In this document: positions 9,335-36,648 of the stretch, piece after piece
Position numbering within the stretch: position 1 is the first letter of the stretch
How the letters are laid out: every line of letters starts with the position of its first letter
Sequence record: MW233709
Origin: Escherichia phage UPEC01
Reading direction: 5' to 3' (one strand)
Length of the DNA: 64,000 bases
Program-made: the position numbers and the translations under genes
The notes under the pieces: model-generated
The model's database searches: none
Told to the model about the DNA's origin: nothing
What the model saw: the letters and a program-made list of their open reading frames with translations, nothing else

Positions 9335-9362
9335 CCCATCAACTACTGATGAGGATAATAAA

Positions 9363-9611: not shown

Positions 9612-9640
9612 TGTACAAGCCCCTTGTCTTAGGACATAAT
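9611..9640 (+). promoter_or_regulatory. early-type promoter
   Basis: GTGTACAA-N16-CATAAT followed by conserved leader GATTCCATACTGAGTTAC. Confidence 0.5.
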
Positions 9641-9689
9641 GATTCCATACTGAGTTACACAATAAACCAACTGTTAAAAGGAAAACCAT

Positions 9690-9992: not shown

Positions 9993-10000
9993 GTGAATAA

Positions 10001-10021
10001 AGGGGCTTACAGCCCCTTTTT
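10001..10021 (+). terminator. intrinsic terminator hairpin
   Basis: aggggcttacagcccctttt. Confidence 0.6.
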
Positions 10022-10060
10022 CTTATGTTATAATGACTCTATCAACTACTGGAGAATAAA

Positions 10061-10378
10061 ATGAAAACCATTGATTGCAAGGCAGAATACAAAGTTTATT
10101 ATCATGGGTCAAGTTCTAATGCTGGAATCCAAAATATGCTTTGTCCTCCTGATGCAACTGGTGTTCTGTCAGAAGTTGGGCGTAAGAAAAATTTAGGGCG
10201 TGTGTTTTTTACTGAAGATATTGGTTTGGCGCGTATCTATGCAGGAAGAGCAGCTCGCTCATATGGAGGAGAACCCCGTCTTTATCGTGTGATTGCACCT
10301 GTTGACGTGGTTTGTTTAAATGATACTAAAGGCGCAACAGTTTATCACGCTGACTGGGCCTTCTGTGAGGAAATCTAA
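10061..10378 (+). CDS. hypothetical protein with HGS-like motif (candidate mini ADP-ribosyltransferase)
   Basis: 105 aa; KVYYHGSSSNAG resembles the H-G-S/T NAD-binding motif of H-Y-E class ARTs; assignment is speculative. Confidence 0.5.
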   Translation: MKTIDCKAEYKVYYHGSSSNAGIQNMLCPPDATGVLSEVGRKKNLGRVFFTEDIGLARIYAGRAARSYGGEPRLYRVIAPVDVVCLNDTKGATVYHADWAFCEEI

Positions 10379-10582
10379 ATGTATAAATTAGAGAACGTAG
10401 TATTTATTGGTTGGTTTGAAAATGGTAATATGTTTACCAAAGAAACCGCGCTGGATGTCAGTGACAAAAATATGATTGAATGGGTTACAGTGCAGTATGC
10501 GGAAGTGAATAATGCGCTGGTTAAAGCCTTTGTTAATGACAATAAAGTTTTTGAATATGATGCCCGCATTGAGGAAATCTAA
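10379..10582 (+). CDS. dmd: Dmd-like small protein (candidate antitoxin against RnlA/LsoA-type toxins)
   Basis: 67 aa, position between 41 and 61 as T4 dmd; GWF...MFTKE...YAEVN..ALVKAF recalled as Dmd-like; not database verified. Confidence 0.45.
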   Translation: MYKLENVVFIGWFENGNMFTKETALDVSDKNMIEWVTVQYAEVNNALVKAFVNDNKVFEYDARIEEI

Positions 10583-10924
10583 ATGACTTTTAATCCAGAA
10601 GACCGCGTAAAAGTAACAATCAAAGTGAGTGCCGTTGGCGTTCCATCTTTTGAGCGCTCAAGTATGTTCCATCCCGCAGGTATTCACTGGTATGTTCAGA
10701 AGACTGCTGATAACTATAATGCGCTGGTTGAAGCTTTTGTTGATGACAAGCTAATTCATAAAGTAGACATGCGTAAGGGTACTGCATTGCGTAATCTGAT
10801 TTTGACCGTTGAAGCGCAACTGGTAAATGAAGAAATCTGCCTTACTGATATTGAAGCAGCTCTTCATATTGCACGTGCTGAATATTACAAATTGACTGGT
10901 TTTTCAGTTGAAGGTGAAAAATAA
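10583..10924 (+). CDS. hypothetical protein, tandem paralog of the Dmd-like protein
   Basis: 113 aa; shares YNALVEAFVDDK/NNALVKAFVNDNK segment with preceding ORF. Confidence 0.55.
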   Translation: MTFNPEDRVKVTIKVSAVGVPSFERSSMFHPAGIHWYVQKTADNYNALVEAFVDDKLIHKVDMRKGTALRNLILTVEAQLVNEEICLTDIEAALHIARAEYYKLTGFSVEGEK

Positions 10925-10925
10925 G

Positions 10926-10956
10926 TGTACATCAAAGGGGTAATGCAGTATATTAT
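10926..10956 (+). promoter_or_regulatory. early-type promoter
   Basis: GTGTACA ... TATATTAT then leader CCTATCAACTACTGAGGAG. Confidence 0.45.
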
Positions 10957-10982
10957 CCCTATCAACTACTGAGGAGATTGAA

Positions 10983-11276
10983 ATGAAAAAGTTATTAATC
11001 GCAGCAATTCTTACCGTAGCATCATGTGGTACAGCCCCAGTTACTGCTGGGCTTGATAAAGACCTTTGTGAGTGGTCCATGACTGCGGACCAGACTGATG
11101 TTGAACACCAGATTTATGCTGACATCATGAACATTACTAAACGTGACCACCCAGATATGGTTAAAGAAGTATCTGACCAACTGGCTTCTGGTGACGTTAT
11201 GCAGTATAACTATGTTCTGTATTGCGATGCTTCATTTGACAACAGCAAGATTGTTCAATGGGTTACAGGTGAATAA
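10983..11276 (+). CDS. secreted/lipoprotein, spackle (Sp)-like by position and size
   Basis: 97 aa with signal peptide MKKLLIAAILTVASCG; T4 sp sits between dmd and 61 and is 97 aa. Confidence 0.45.
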   Translation: MKKLLIAAILTVASCGTAPVTAGLDKDLCEWSMTADQTDVEHQIYADIMNITKRDHPDMVKEVSDQLASGDVMQYNYVLYCDASFDNSKIVQWVTGE

Positions 11277-11277
11277 A

Positions 11278-11718
11278 ATGATTAACAGAAATTTAGTTAT
11301 CAAAAAACTTCGTTGTAAAAATCAAAATGCACAAGCATACAGGATGTTTTGGAGCGACGAACCCATTCAATACCTGGGTTATTTTCTTGTTGATAGTGAT
11401 AATAGAATTACGTTTGCTCATAAACTTCTTAACAAAGAATTAAACCATTGGCAAGAACTTATTGCGGTCAAGTCTAAATTATTTTCGCGCAATACAATGC
11501 ACCAATTGGTTTATTTTTTCGCTGACGGTATTCCTGACAAGGTTGAGTTTGATGGGTTTGAATTTAAAGACATCACCCCTGATAATGAATTGAATGACAG
11601 TATTGTTAATATGGGTATCCCGGGTAAGTACATCAAAAACAGTCTTTTGAAACTTCTGGAAACCCCTGTATATTCAGTTGACGACCAGATTTTTAATGCC
11701 TTCATGAAGCGAGATTAG
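11278..11718 (+). CDS. hypothetical protein (146 aa)
   Basis: Start ATG 11278 (MINRNLVIKK) chosen over track start 11143, which overlaps previous gene in another frame. Confidence 0.5.
   Translation: MINRNLVIKKLRCKNQNAQAYRMFWSDEPIQYLGYFLVDSDNRITFAHKLLNKELNHWQELIAVKSKLFSRNTMHQLVYFFADGIPDKVEFDGFEFKDITPDNELNDSIVNMGIPGKYIKNSLLKLLETPVYSVDDQIFNAFMKRD
11677..11713 (+). repeat. 37-bp direct repeat copy 1 (encodes VDDQIFNAFMKR tail)
   Basis: gttgacgaccagatttttaatgccttcatgaagcgag, identical to 12032-12068. Confidence 0.9.
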
Positions 11719-11719
11719 T

Positions 11720-12073
11720 ATGAGTTATTATAATTTTCTGAATTTTGAACTGGCGAGCAATAATGATGGTAATGCTCATTATGAATTTCGTGAGCCACGG
11801 TTTAATCAAGCGATTGGTTATATTATCGTCAAAGATGATGTTATCATAAAGGCTCGCTCATTTATGGTAATGAATGGACCTTATGAAGATACTCGCGGCT
11901 ATCCATTTGATAAAAAGAATGTGCGCGATTGTGCAGCATGGATAACCGGAAACCCCGAAATTGGGGTCATGATATCTACTGAAGCGAATGACATTCTGGA
12001 AGGGGCTTGGGTCAAAGCTCAAGAACAGTCTGTTGACGACCAGATTTTTAATGCCTTCATGAAGCGAGGTTAA
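11720..12073 (+). CDS. hypothetical protein (117 aa)
   Basis: ORF; C-terminal 13 aa identical to that of the preceding ORF. Confidence 0.5.
   Translation: MSYYNFLNFELASNNDGNAHYEFREPRFNQAIGYIIVKDDVIIKARSFMVMNGPYEDTRGYPFDKKNVRDCAAWITGNPEIGVMISTEANDILEGAWVKAQEQSVDDQIFNAFMKRG
12032..12068 (+). repeat. 37-bp direct repeat copy 2
   Basis: identical to 11677-11713. Confidence 0.9.
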
Positions 12074-12074
12074 T

Positions 12075-12296
12075 ATGTTTGTTTTGACCCAATTCTCTAA
12101 AGCAATATATAGTTACTCTTGCCAGTGGGAAGTCTTTATTGATACGCCGTCTCCCAAGTATGGAGTTTTTGGACGAGTAACTACTCAAGCTTATGTTGCG
12201 CGACCGACTAAACGTCAGATTCGTAAACTTAAAAAGGCACATCGTCAACTGATTAAAAGAAGGGAACAATATGAGTGCAATGTGTACGGGCTCTAA
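12075..12296 (+). CDS. hypothetical protein (73 aa), basic C-terminus
   Basis: ORF with lysine/arginine-rich tail (RQIRKLKKAHRQLIKRR). Confidence 0.45.
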   Translation: MFVLTQFSKAIYSYSCQWEVFIDTPSPKYGVFGRVTTQAYVARPTKRQIRKLKKAHRQLIKRREQYECNVYGL

Positions 12297-12462
12297 GATT
12301 TCCGTCTTCCAGATTTTTGAAGAATATGAAATCGTGTCGCAAGACCAAGAAGCAATCCATGCTATCGCTGATGATGGGGTTACCTGGATTATTCCGTTGT
12401 ATCATGAAGACACTTATGAAGTGACTGATGCAAATGGTGATAAAGCTATCTTCGTTGTATAA
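12271..12462 (+). CDS. hypothetical protein (63 aa)
   Basis: ORF overlapping previous by 26 nt. Confidence 0.4.
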   Translation: MSAMCTGSKISVFQIFEEYEIVSQDQEAIHAIADDGVTWIIPLYHEDTYEVTDANGDKAIFVV

Positions 12463-12465
12463 ATA
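12458..12465 (+). promoter_or_regulatory. late promoter TATAAATA
   Basis: Exact T4 late -10 consensus 18 nt upstream of ORF 12483. Confidence 0.5.
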
Positions 12466-12482
12466 GCGGAAAGGGGGGTGTT

Positions 12483-12650
12483 ATGAAAACATTCAAAGAT
12501 TTTATCAACGAAGATATGGTTGCTGGTGATGCAGGTGGAAACCCAACTAATATCGCAACAGGTACCACTTCCGGGGCAGTTGTCAATAAAGGCCCTGAAC
12601 AAATCCCATCAAAAAAGCGTAAGAACAAAGACGATAAACCTACAGTATAA
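12483..12650 (+). CDS. hypothetical protein (55 aa)
   Basis: ORF with strong RBS AAGGGGGG. Confidence 0.4.
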   Translation: MKTFKDFINEDMVAGDAGGNPTNIATGTTSGAVVNKGPEQIPSKKRKNKDDKPTV

Positions 12651-12682
12651 TGGTCCTCCGGGACCATTGAAATGAGGAAACT

Positions 12683-13711
12683 ATGTCATATATTGATAGA
12701 GAATTTGCAGTCAGAGCTTTATCGTATCAACCACGTTATAGAGAAGTCACCGGGAGCACATTTAAAGCAAACTGTCGTTGCAAGGTTTGTGGGGACTCCC
12801 AGAAAGATTCACACAAGGCTCGATTCTGGGCGTATACTAATCCGGCCGATGGCGCGGTTTACGTGAAATGTTTTAACTGTGACTACTCCACGCATATAAG
12901 CAAATACATAAAAGAGTTTGAGCCGGATTTACACCGGGAATATATGGTTGAGAAGTATAAGGAGAATGCCTTTGGGCGACAACGCAATGAAGTCATTGAA
13001 ACTCCGAAAGAACCAGAAAAAACTCCGGTTATCGAACAGCTTGCTTTTTGTGAAAGACTCGATACTTTACCAGAAGCACATCCGATAATTAAGTATGTAA
13101 AAAGTCGATGTATTCCAAGCAATGTTTGGAATCGACTATGGTTTACAAACCAATGGCCCACATTAGTTAACTCCGTTAATCCTGGGACGTATAAGAATGA
13201 AACGAATGAACCACGCTTGGTTATTCCTATCTTCAACGGCAAAAAAGAAATCGAATCTTTCCAAGGACGAGCTCTTCGCAAAGATGCACCACAAAAATAT
13301 ATCACAATCAAAGCTCACCCAGAAGCTTCCAAAGTCTATGGCGTAGACAAGATTGATGAGCGTAAACGCGTATGGGTAATGGAAGGTCCGATTGATAGTT
13401 TGTTTATCCCTAACAGCATTGCGATAACTGGTGGAACATTGTCATTGGAAGCCGTTCCTTATCCAGAAACCAGAGTATGGGTAATGGACAACGAACCAAG
13501 ACATCCGGATACGATTAAACGTATGAAGAAGCTCGTTGAAGCTGGCGAAGCTGTTATGTTCTGGGACAATGCACCATGGCATACGAAAGACATAAATGAG
13601 ATGGTTAAATCAGAAGGAGCAACCCCTGAACAAATCGAATCATATATGGCTGATAACGTTGCCCAAGGATTGATGGCGAGAATGCGACTTTCGAAGTACG
13701 CAAAAGTTTAG
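12683..13711 (+). CDS. 61: DNA primase gp61
   Basis: 342 aa, zinc-binding CxxC...CxNC N-terminus, TOPRIM region, strong similarity to T4 gp61 (PIIKYVK.RCIP, DNEPRHPDTIKRM). Confidence 0.93.
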   Translation: MSYIDREFAVRALSYQPRYREVTGSTFKANCRCKVCGDSQKDSHKARFWAYTNPADGAVYVKCFNCDYSTHISKYIKEFEPDLHREYMVEKYKENAFGRQRNEVIETPKEPEKTPVIEQLAFCERLDTLPEAHPIIKYVKSRCIPSNVWNRLWFTNQWPTLVNSVNPGTYKNETNEPRLVIPIFNGKKEIESFQGRALRKDAPQKYITIKAHPEASKVYGVDKIDERKRVWVMEGPIDSLFIPNSIAITGGTLSLEAVPYPETRVWVMDNEPRHPDTIKRMKKLVEAGEAVMFWDNAPWHTKDINEMVKSEGATPEQIESYMADNVAQGLMARMRLSKYAKV

Positions 13712-13908
13712 GAAGGGATTCCGGTAAAGTAACCAATAATAGAATGGATATGTTCCATTGTGACCTGAGGTAAGTGCACCCCTTGTGTTGCGGCGATGGG
13801 TACAACCAGTAAGTTCCACAGGAAAACATCAAGAGCTAAAAAGCCCATGATGAGCTTCTTGTCTTTCTTACTGGTTAATTTCCAAATCTGATAGAATAAT
13901 GTTCCCAT
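13708..13908 (-). CDS. small membrane protein (66 aa), paralog B
   Basis: Minus-strand ORF with GGTGG RBS; one hydrophobic helix; paralogous to 13917-14114. Confidence 0.5.
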   Translation of the reverse strand: MGTLFYQIWKLTSKKDKKLIMGFLALDVFLWNLLVVPIAATQGVHLPQVTMEHIHSIIGYFTGIPS

Positions 13909-13916
13909 AGTTCCAC

Positions 13917-14114
13917 CTATATAAGGCCGATTAATGCCAGTGAAACATCTACAACTGATTCGAGCGCGACGACTGGTAATATAACACCATGTGCCAATGC
14001 AATAGGGGCAACAATGAAATTCCAGAGTAGAACTAAACAGAGTACCGAAAGGACCAGAATCGTTCGCTTACGACTGCCTTTGATGGCTTGAATTAGACTA
14101 GATAGTTTTAGCAT
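13917..14114 (-). CDS. small membrane protein (65 aa), paralog A
   Basis: Minus-strand ORF with strong AGGAGG RBS; motif LWNFIVAPIALAHGVILPVV shared with neighbour. Confidence 0.55.
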   Translation of the reverse strand: MLKLSSLIQAIKGSRKRTILVLSVLCLVLLWNFIVAPIALAHGVILPVVALESVVDVSLALIGLI

Positions 14115-21172: not shown

Positions 21173-21852
21173 TTGATGCTATTATTGACTTTGAAACTCT
21201 GGGAAACGGCTCGAAGGGAGCCGTTATTGACCTGGCGCTGATTACATTCGAATCTGACCCTGCTATTGTGGAATCGTTCGAAACCCTGGTTAATCGCGGC
21301 AAACGCATTAAGTTTAGTCTCGAATACCAAAAAGGAAAACGTCTGTTTGATACAACAACCATGGGTTGGTGGAAAAAGCAATCAGCAGAAGCTCGTGTTA
21401 ACCTGACTCCTTCTGCACATGATGTTGATACTCTGACCGGTATCCAACAGGCGATTGACTATCTGAATGGTAATGGAATTAACAAATACGAAAGCCTTAT
21501 GTGGTGCCGTGGGATGTCTTTTGACTTCCCGTTGTTTGTTGACCTTATCCGCGACCTACAGCGCAATGAGGGGATTCCTGAGCGTGAATTGAATACCTAT
21601 AACCTGGAGCCGGTTGTATTCTGGAACCAGCGAGATATCAGGACAGCCATCGAAGCCTTGTCACTCGTCCGTAAGATGTGTGAAACCCCATTACCGAAAG
21701 GGACTTTAGATGGATTTGTGGCGCACGATTCGGTACATGACTGCGCGAAAGATATTTTGATGTTGAAGTATGCCCAGCGCTATGCTCTTGGTTTAGATGA
21801 AGTTCCTTCCGAAGAAGATGCAGACCCATTATCTTTGCCGAAAAAACGATAA
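21169..21852 (+). CDS. dexA: exonuclease A (DexA)
   Basis: 227 aa; IIDFETLG DEDD-type exonuclease start, size and position as T4 dexA. Confidence 0.8.
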   Translation: MIDAIIDFETLGNGSKGAVIDLALITFESDPAIVESFETLVNRGKRIKFSLEYQKGKRLFDTTTMGWWKKQSAEARVNLTPSAHDVDTLTGIQQAIDYLNGNGINKYESLMWCRGMSFDFPLFVDLIRDLQRNEGIPERELNTYNLEPVVFWNQRDIRTAIEALSLVRKMCETPLPKGTLDGFVAHDSVHDCAKDILMLKYAQRYALGLDEVPSEEDADPLSLPKKR

Positions 21853-27088: not shown

Positions 27089-27112
27089 AAAAGGACCTTC
27101 GGGTCCTTTTTT
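27089..27112 (+). terminator. intrinsic terminator hairpin
   Basis: aaaaggaccttcgggtcctttttt. Confidence 0.65.
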
Positions 27113-27288
27113 ATTATGTACAAGCCATAAAAATTGCGTTAAGATGTCCTTGAGGTGAAAATATGATTATGTCTGACGGAAGTTTAGTTAATCTACATTT
27201 TTTATTATGTACAAGCCATAAAAATTGCGTTAAGATGTCCTTGAGGTGAAAATATGATTATGTCTGACGGAAGTTTAGTTAATCTACA
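27107..27288 (+). repeat. perfect 91-bp tandem duplication (2 copies) covering promoter, RBS and first 12 codons
   Basis: 27107-27197 identical to 27198-27288. Confidence 0.95.
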
Positions 27289-32354: not shown

Positions 32355-32384
32355 GTGTACATCAGTATGGAGTCTATGTATAAT
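32355..32384 (+). promoter_or_regulatory. early-type promoter
   Basis: AAAAAGTAGTGTACA ... TATAAT then leader GATTCCATACTGAGTTAC. Confidence 0.5.
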
Positions 32385-32418
32385 GATTCCATACTGAGTT
32401 ACCAAACTGGAGAATAAA

Positions 32419-36569: not shown

Positions 36570-36599
36570 GTGTACAAACCCCTTGTCTTAGGACATAAT
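36570..36599 (+). promoter_or_regulatory. early-type promoter
   Basis: AAAAAAGTAGTGTACAA-N16-CATAAT then GATTCCATACTGAGTTAC. Confidence 0.5.
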
Positions 36600-36648
36600 G
36601 ATTCCATACTGAGTTACACAATGAATCACAAAAACTTTGGAGAATAAA

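Follow-up and report, generated by a model that had tools for sequence, protein, structure and literature searches.

Two tandem genes downstream of sp in a T-even phage end with the C-terminal motif of the AdfA family and are probably diverged members of it

Escherichia phage UPEC01 (sequence record MW233709) carries, in the stretch of 64,000 nucleotides (nt) analysed here and called the window hereafter, two adjacent genes that end with the same 37 nt and the same C-terminal peptide. Why would two neighbouring genes, here named A and B, share precisely their last codons, and is it the protein, the DNA, or both that has been kept the same? Both genes occupy the slot directly after sp, which in T4 holds gene 61.2, or adfA, encoding the anti-DarT factor A (PMC11257639/PMC11825919, PMC9391042). 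The answer that we favour, with reasonable confidence, is that A and B would be tandem, diverged, single-domain paralogues of AdfA, whose common tail is kept by selection and has been made identical by gene conversion. The features on which this question turns are the following.

11278..11718, + strand: gene A, 146 amino acids (aa), phrog_8539, family of JS98 orf30; starts 2 nt past the stop codon of sp.
11720..12073, + strand: gene B, 117 aa, phrog_4122; directly after A.
11677..11713, + strand: tail copy 1, at the 3' end of gene A; codes for VDDQIFNAFMKR and, with its last base, begins the final Asp codon.
12032..12068, + strand: tail copy 2, at the 3' end of gene B; codes for VDDQIFNAFMKR and, with its last base, begins the final Gly codon.

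The two tail copies form an exact direct repeat of 37 nt (GTTGACGACCAGATTTTTAATGCCTTCATGAAGCGAG), both on the + strand and 355 bp apart, and each codes for VDDQIFNAFMKR followed by one residue and a stop codon, the product of A ending with ...SVDDQIFNAFMKRD and that of B with ...SVDDQIFNAFMKRG. This identity of DNA and peptide had been described in a sequence-only reading of the window and is borne out by direct sequence comparison. The likeness widens to 49 nt with 46/49 matching (11674-11722 versus 12029-12077, three mismatches), a stretch that continues past the stop codon and a single spacer base to include the ATG of the following gene. When the window was shuffled 100 times with its dinucleotides preserved, no match with three mismatches or fewer arose, and only two exact repeats in the 64 kb are longer. 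When A and B are compared by BLASTP, the alignment is limited to the 13-residue tail, so that the earlier statement that no similarity exists outside the tail holds at this level; it fails at the level of profiles and predicted structures, as described below.

Comparison with relatives identifies the tail as the invariant C-terminal motif of the AdfA family (T4 gp61.2, PF23813). Its consensus is (I/V)DDQIFNAFM(K/N)(R/K)(D/G), and both A and B end with it. The gp61.2/AdfA proteins of RB27, RB33, HX01, and several uncultured T4-type contigs terminate in S(I/V)DDQIFNAFMN(R/K)(G/D), the primers used to clone RB69 adfA code for ...QIFNAFMNRG, and the final positions of the Pfam AdfA model PF23813 match the tail of B. 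The same tail also ends the B homologues of Tequatrovirus (T2, RB27, RB33), the A family of Dhakavirus and Gaprivervirus (JS98, MX01, VR7, VR26), and three further divergent types found in metagenomes, namely A2 (P0035, P0063, P0067), P0049, and P0056, whose genes all lie directly after sp and ahead of gene 61. No gene type recovered from this slot, be it AdfA, B, A, A2, P0049, or P0056, lacks the tail.

Among GenBank phage records, tail DNA is present in 554 records at 751 places, all of them T-even-type; the corresponding bodies amount to 487 for AdfA, 332 for B, and 85 for A, the latter all of Gaprivervirus/Dhakavirus type. Two phages were left out as likely assembly problems: DCP80, with four tail matches, and 04086. 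The DCP80 record (L027) is 141 kb long and has genes 44 and 45 after B, and the A gene of 04086 (L010 2501-3358) shows an internal triplication of its C-terminal half together with X residues; both are apparent assembly artefacts.

Relatives lacking the tail, for which the earlier reading had proposed to look, were not found in an exhaustive search of 1.84 billion representative proteins with the B profile. Apart from B types, a B fragment with a frameshift, and AdfA, its sole match was spurious (P0069, 968 aa), a repeat lipoprotein that was matched via a short Cys-containing repeat and was rejected as a relative. Nor was the motif found as a C-terminus outside these phage genes in IMG/VR, JGI metagenomes, or GTDB genomes. 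Mimicry of a host protein was considered as well and discarded: DQIFNAFM occurs in JGI metagenomes and GTDB genomes only as chance internal matches (an aminotransferase, a histidine kinase, and short open reading frames (ORFs)). Within the window, a segment of Sp, VEHQIYADIMNITKRD (11099-11131), has 76-79% nucleotide identity to the tail and resembles its peptide too, and it is conserved across all Sp proteins examined, those of T2, RB27, and RB33 included. As a third copy of the tail, it would score about 11 bits by our estimate, which is not significant, and the resemblance is probably due to chance.

What has been conserved in the tail is its peptide. In about 40 tail copies, all nucleotide changes within DDQIFNAFM are synonymous, a pattern that holds across four genera, and amino acids vary only at the first position (V/I) and at the three closing ones. 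When the B orthologues of Gaprivervirus and Tequatrovirus are compared at conserved residues, the same codon is used in about 45% of cases in the body and in 6/11 cases in the tail; the synonymous sites of the tail are therefore as saturated as those of the rest of the gene, which leaves no extra constraint at the nucleotide level and places selection on the peptide. The same saturation is seen in the 36-residue C-terminal region of A and A2. The segment before the tail is a linker of variable length in the B family (indels of 0-9 residues) and a conserved stretch of 23 residues in the A family. These comparisons demonstrate, at the level of sequence, long-term purifying selection on the tail peptide while the bodies diverged almost past recognition. 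The idea of a functional shared tag, which was one of two explanations put forward in the sequence-only reading, is thereby retained insofar as the peptide is under selection; nothing supports the degradation or targeting role that had been attached to it.

A drifted tail accompanies a damaged B gene in one uncultured T-even-like contig (L060 4437-4794), where B is frameshifted into ORFs of 63 and 68 aa and ends with DDQIFNAFLKRGE (M to L, with an altered end); the A2 gene upstream of it has DDQIFKAFMNRG.

How far does the kinship between these genes reach beyond the tail? For B, the profile evidence is solid in pointing to a homologue of the C-terminal half of AdfA. Residues 125-209 of AdfA match positions 31-117 of phrog_4122 (E=9e-8), and the B profile finds AdfA proteins of 210 aa with E=1.6e-5 and 78% of B covered when 5.8 billion proteins are searched, and with 4.3e-8 and two matched stretches in the 1.84 billion representatives. 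The bodies of AdfA and B in RB27 are about 27% identical. Tequatrovirus B homologues have a precomputed match to PF23813, whose gathering threshold (27 bits) is not reached in the window: B obtains 21.4 bits over residues 102-117 only and A gives no match, the control gp61.2 of RB27 scoring 450.6 bits. Residue 164, which determines the specificity of AdfA (in the numbering of the paper's start codon), sits in NIN(H/R)IAS, and this segment aligns with the conserved KNVRDCA helix of B; the residue aligned to His164 is Asp70 in B and Asn in Tequatrovirus B. The T2 gene named '61.2' is of the B type, and VR20 annotates B as 'similar to T4 gp61.2'. In the published work searched, T2 is counted as having no adfA homologue, though it has B.

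Gene A, whose own PHROG family is phrog_8539 (3.5e-91), is probably a homologue of B and AdfA as well, on weaker evidence from profiles and Foldseek than in the case of B. It is a single-domain protein, consisting of a fast-evolving, N-terminal, beta-rich body and the conserved C-terminal 36 aa that end in the tail. After removal of the tail, hhalign comparisons of all pairs among A, B, and the N- and C-terminal halves of AdfA give P values of 7e-5 to 6e-3; those of A to B and to both AdfA halves range from 2e-3 to 6e-3, and those of A to the AdfA halves extend over about 70 columns with P values of 2e-3 to 3.5e-3. In every pair, the best local alignment is the same hairpin, G-(Y/F)-h-h-V-x-D-(D/N)-x-I. 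Independent AlphaFold2 (AF2) models of A and B, with a mean predicted local distance difference test (pLDDT) score of 68.9 (76-88 in the body) and 81.5, respectively, have a common order of elements, b1-b2-b3-b4-(b5)-alpha-beta-C-terminal helix, and the hairpin maps to b3-b4 in both of them. When these models are compared with BFVD by Foldseek, the top non-self match of A is the B family (E=3.6e-5), together with a 157-aa Yersinia phage protein, and that of B is the A family (E=7.4e-4), followed by a protein similar in length to AdfA (212 aa; 1.6e-3) and by the 157-aa Yersinia protein again. No solved structure or curated family matching the fold was found that could inform it.

The description of the two ORFs as otherwise unrelated must accordingly be abandoned: by profile, AF2 topology, and reciprocal Foldseek matches, B is a remote paralogue of AdfA and A probably is one too, and the broader similarity between paralogues, which the sequence-only reading had named as grounds for refutation and had not seen in the letters alone, is present at the level of profile and structure, not at that of BLAST. 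The resemblance to AdfA comprises the locus directly after sp in the dmd-61 operon, the identical DDQIFNAFM, the same predicted fold elements, and the alignment of B with AdfA residues about 125-210, the residue-164 helix included. The differences lie in architecture and in one residue: AdfA has about 210 aa and apparently consists of two domains in tandem, whereas A (146 aa) and B (117 aa) have one domain each, and the counterpart of His164 in B is Asp. AdfA itself looks like a tandem of two A/B-like domains.

The foremost rival explanation would be a mobile C-terminal tag, be it a degron, a targeting signal, or a docking peptide, that was grafted by recombination onto unrelated proteins. This is what the BLASTP comparison of A and B would lead one to expect, and so would the variable-length linker before the tail in the B family, the low AF2 confidence for the tail, and the finding that A and A2 share their conserved C-terminal 36 aa on very different N-terminal bodies. 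However, the bodies have a common predicted topology, the hairpin motif, and reciprocal Foldseek matches; B matches half of AdfA well past the tail; and the tail is confined to one family and one locus in the IMG/VR, JGI, and GTDB searches. The saturation of synonymous sites in the C-terminal region of A and A2 argues against any recent grafting. AdfA(R164H) carrying a C-terminal T18 fusion still bound DarT1, so that this binding does not need a free C-terminus. Degrons of the ssrA type end in nonpolar residues, and the end of the tail (K/N-R-D/G) is polar. We consider such a tag improbable. Clamp-binding (PIP-like or beta-clamp-like) motifs and single-stranded-DNA-binding-protein-tip-like motifs were also compared and rejected, their hydrophobic spacing being unlike that of the tail.

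If selection acts on the peptide, why are the two copies identical in DNA? Two independent encodings of VDDQIFNAFMKR under the codon usage of the window are expected to differ at 6.3 nt, and the probability of no difference is about 1e-4, a value that the constraint on the Arg codon discussed below roughly doubles by our estimate. The non-preferred codons GAC, GCC, AAG, and CGA are common to both copies. In RB27, the AdfA and B tails show no differences. Across 12 distinct two-copy genomes, the tails within a genome differ on average by 2.75 per 36 nt (range 0-6), and orthologous B tails of different genera by 5.4 per 36 nt. In close Gaprivervirus genomes, the tails of A and B are mosaic combinations of the same synonymous states. 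From the improbability of the identity, the within-genome likeness, and the mosaic states, all statistically strong, we infer episodic gene conversion between the direct repeats, of which the window would be the fully homogenised extreme. Conversion driven by a homing endonuclease was considered and rejected: the endonuclease is annotated in RZ downstream of gene 61, not beside the tails.

Old paralogy could in principle suffice, the DNA identity then resulting from slow evolution or codon bias without any gene conversion. The peptide is indeed under very strong constraint, and the differences between genera are mostly of A/T-ending versus G/C-ending codons, as compositional drift would produce. 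This explanation nevertheless has to accommodate the 6.3 expected differences and the shared non-preferred codons, the absence of differences between the RB27 AdfA and B tails despite bodies that are so dissimilar, and the mosaic tail states among close Gaprivervirus genomes, and we regard it as quite unlikely.

The tail repeats would also account for the patchy presence of B. After sp, T4-type contigs, PYps32T, and HX01 have AdfA only; T2 has B only; RB27, RB33, and the sequences L026, L038, and L049 have AdfA and B; JS98, MX01, and VR26 have A only; and the window, VR20, VR7, MN01, and L045 have A and B. In each genus, the presence or absence of B amounts to a difference of exactly one repeat unit, made up of the B body and a single tail. 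Such an exact one-unit indel is the product expected of unequal exchange, or of a crossover between co-infecting phages, within the tail, and B would thus be gained and lost through its tail. A different kind of deletion is found in T2 (L028 1378-2041), where sp has lost its 3' end, its product having 92 aa and ending with ...NNHR, and AdfA is missing; this deletion does not use the tail repeat.

The mechanism we propose joins these elements. Purifying selection keeps the tail peptide while the bodies of A and B diverge; the direct-repeat tails, at their short distance in a recombination-prone genome, would undergo episodic gene conversion; and they may act as the crossover point for the loss or gain of the B cassette. 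As for function, we suggest with low confidence that the tail could be a helix for protein-protein interaction, performing the same step in every member, for instance docking onto a conserved site of the target toxin or onto a common partner, and that the variable beta-domain, with the helix carrying the AdfA specificity residue 164, might set the specificity. A bolder version would make the tail the universal effector or docking helix of hypervariable anti-toxin proteins, inhibiting a conserved toxin site or recruiting a phage or host partner once the beta-domain has selected the target, and, at the same time, a selected in-frame recombination joint by which cassettes are swapped, stacked, or dropped between co-infecting T-even phages; this version we regard as tentative and rather doubtful.

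Several observations weigh against the interpretation of A and B as AdfA paralogues with a selected and converted tail. The homology of the A body relies on weak profile scores from low-diversity alignments (effective number of sequences about 1.7-2.9), and the Foldseek alignments use amino-acid identity and are helped by the identical tail, with template modelling scores of 0.43-0.55 and a high root-mean-square deviation. Gene conversion is not universal, the copies in MN01 and in L060 differing at 6 nt, and common base composition could add to the contrast between genera, although it cannot explain the exact identity. The AF2 models give little confidence to the short helix predicted for the tail (pLDDT about 50-55), the hydrophobic moment of which does not exceed that of shuffled sequences, so that no classical amphipathic helix is claimed. 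Finally, the sequences suggest A and B as inhibitors of DarT or other toxins in the sense of candidates only.

The end of the tail has a second use, which is visible in the layout of the two gene junctions.

11711..11722, + strand: junction of A and B; a weak Shine-Dalgarno sequence GAGA within the final codons of A, then the stop codon TAG (11716-11718), a single base, and the ATG of B (11720-11722).
12066..12077, + strand: junction of B and the downstream gene; a Shine-Dalgarno sequence GAGG formed from the Arg and Gly codons, then the stop codon TAA (12071-12073), a single base, and the ATG of the downstream gene (12075-12077).

The last two or three codons of the tail also belong to the junction with the next gene, made up of Shine-Dalgarno sequence, stop codon, and ATG. 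The layout of the A/B junction is the same in every relative examined, and the Arg codon of the tail is always CGA or AGA, both rare in the window, a restriction that fits its double use as ribosome-binding site (RBS). Could the repeat have been kept as a nucleic-acid element for the downstream gene, through translational coupling, a promoter, or an RNA structure, with the peptide as a by-product? The arrangement of GAGG or GAGA, stop, one base, and next ATG in the last codons and the limited choice of Arg codon speak for it, and so does TGAGGAAATCTAAATG, another junction sequence that is used twice in this operon (at 10366 and 10570). The overlap with the RBS, however, covers and explains only about the last 10 nt of the repeat, the other codons being saturated at synonymous sites with invariant amino acids. 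RNA folding of both copies and of the RB27 copies is no better than that of shuffles (z-scores of -0.1 to +1.1), Rfam covariance models have no match at E<=1 in 10000-14000, and a scan found no terminator or promoter-like site common to both copies. In L062, moreover, the next gene has its own upstream RBS with an 8-nt spacer, and the tail is still ...FMNRG. A nucleic-acid element as the reason for the repeat is thus very unlikely.

An inert footprint of a single past event of illegitimate or homologous recombination, free of selection, is scarcely credible: an exact direct repeat does flank a cassette-sized unit and T4-type phages do recombine at short homologies (PMC9391042), but the peptide stays unchanged across six or more types of body from Tequatro-, Mosig-, Dhaka-, and Gaprivervirus and uncultured T-even-like contigs, and the core substitutions are all synonymous, so that the comparative data already contradict it. 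Of the recombination footprint proposed in the sequence-only reading, the recombination itself agrees with the DNA identity and the exact one-unit indels of B, and the inert scar falls with the synonymous-only changes of the core.

The surroundings of A and B place them in a locus whose plasticity has been described. The window belongs to a VR20/SP18-like T-even phage, with 95-98% identity to the Gaprivervirus phages TH41, VR20, and SP18 in this region. Gene 41 is followed, in this order, by two small genes, dmd, a Dmd-like paralogue, sp, A, B, a DUF7279 gene, a 63-aa gene, 61.1, and 61.

10379..10582, + strand: dmd, by annotation; antitoxin gene of the same operon.
10983..11276, + strand: sp (spackle), a conserved gene and the left-hand anchor of the slot, by the annotations of relatives and PF25676 matches in metagenome contigs.
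12075..12296, + strand: DUF7279 gene, 73 aa (Pfam PF23945 at 3.3e-20), annotated in VR20 and VR7 as similar to T4 gp61.4 (TifA).
12683..13711, + strand: gene 61 (DNA primase), by annotation; conserved, and the right-hand anchor of the locus.

A lies after sp and B after A, upstream of 61.1 and 61, which is the position of the AdfA family, and all relatives use the same slot. The 73-aa DUF7279 gene adjoins A directly in JS98, MX01, and VR26, where B is missing between them. In T4-like phages, this locus (dmd/61.5, tifA/61.4, adfA/61.2) has been termed the 'anti-TA island', TA standing for toxin-antitoxin (Srikant et al. 2022, PMC9391042), and recombination at short homologies has been shown experimentally to reshape it in T4 (PMC9391042). 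As in that island, we deal here with an operon of small, fast-evolving, translationally coupled genes, in which recombination at short homologies leads to amplifications and deletions; the T4 experiments involved incidental microhomologies of 6-10 bp (PMC9391042), whereas the repeat described here is a coding one of 37-49 nt kept by selection on the peptide.

Two other systems invite comparison with the tail, although neither is the same. The early promoter and stem-loop of the repeated elements known as PeSL would mark one of them; the tail shares with PeSL a place at the borders of gene cassettes in hyperplastic regions of T4-type genomes, and differs from it in being coding, in lacking a stem-loop, and in having no promoter-like site common to both copies, so that it does not belong to that class. 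These PeSL regulatory cassettes are intergenic and reportedly mediate modular shuffling in T4-type genomes, as Arbiol et al. are said to have described in 2010. The other is the T-even tail-fibre adhesin gp37/gp38, in which, according to what Tetart, Desplats and Krisch reportedly found in 1998, recombination takes place around hypervariable segments at 'His-box' and glycine-rich motifs. By this analogy, conserved coding motifs would be in both cases a functional peptide and the homology for swapping variable segments between co-infecting phages; the locus and the protein family are different.

Few phage inhibitors of TA defence have been characterised. AdfA is among them, and our results suggest that it forms part of a wider set of short paralogues, namely A, A2, B, P0049, and P0056, which in the annotation and literature searched are treated as unrelated hypothetical proteins. 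These short paralogues are candidate inhibitors of further DarT variants or of different toxins, and the invariant tail would be the prime target for mutation. The same 37 nt would be subject both to selection on the peptide and to gene conversion or unequal crossing-over, which would explain the patchwork of gene presence among T-even phages. The advance is a modest one, consisting of the grouping of A, B, and the other short types with AdfA, the invariance of the tail in all of them, and its proposed role as the recombination joint of the slot; a known family and a known recombination behaviour are extended, and current understanding is not overturned.

Further repeats were noticed in the same operon. 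The junction sequence mentioned above, TGAGGAAATCTAAATG, is 16 nt long and recurs without a mismatch at two gene junctions in succession (10366-10381 and 10570-10585); the ORF at 10061-10378 and dmd both end with ...EEI, and their stop codon abuts the next ATG, making this a second gene-end/RBS junction shared within the operon. The 113-aa gene that follows dmd shares with it a 34-nt patch of 91% identity (10509-10542 and 10716-10749; NNALVKAFVNDNK versus YNALVEAFVDDKL). Its product has weak matches to Dmd (Pfam E=1.7e-3; phrog_2102 E=9e-6), and because of these it is probably a tandem paralogue of Dmd.

Elsewhere in the window, a 91-nt exact tandem duplication (27107-27197 and 27198-27288) lies just past a terminator-like hairpin and holds a promoter-like TGTACA...TAAGAT segment, an RBS, and the gene start ATGATTATGTCTGACGG..., so that a gene start appears to have been duplicated together with its regulatory region. 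A 44-nt exact dispersed repeat, CCCCTTGTCTTAGGACATAATGATTCCATACTGAGTTACACAAT, is found at 9620-9663 and 36579-36622, with its core again at 32380-32402; the related motif AAAAAGTAGTGTACAA occurs at 21851, 32346, 36562, 53562, and 54973, and the related motif ATCAACTACTGATGAGGATAA at 9338, 17757, 21895, and 63064. These dispersed motifs look like repeated intergenic promoter/RBS cassettes.

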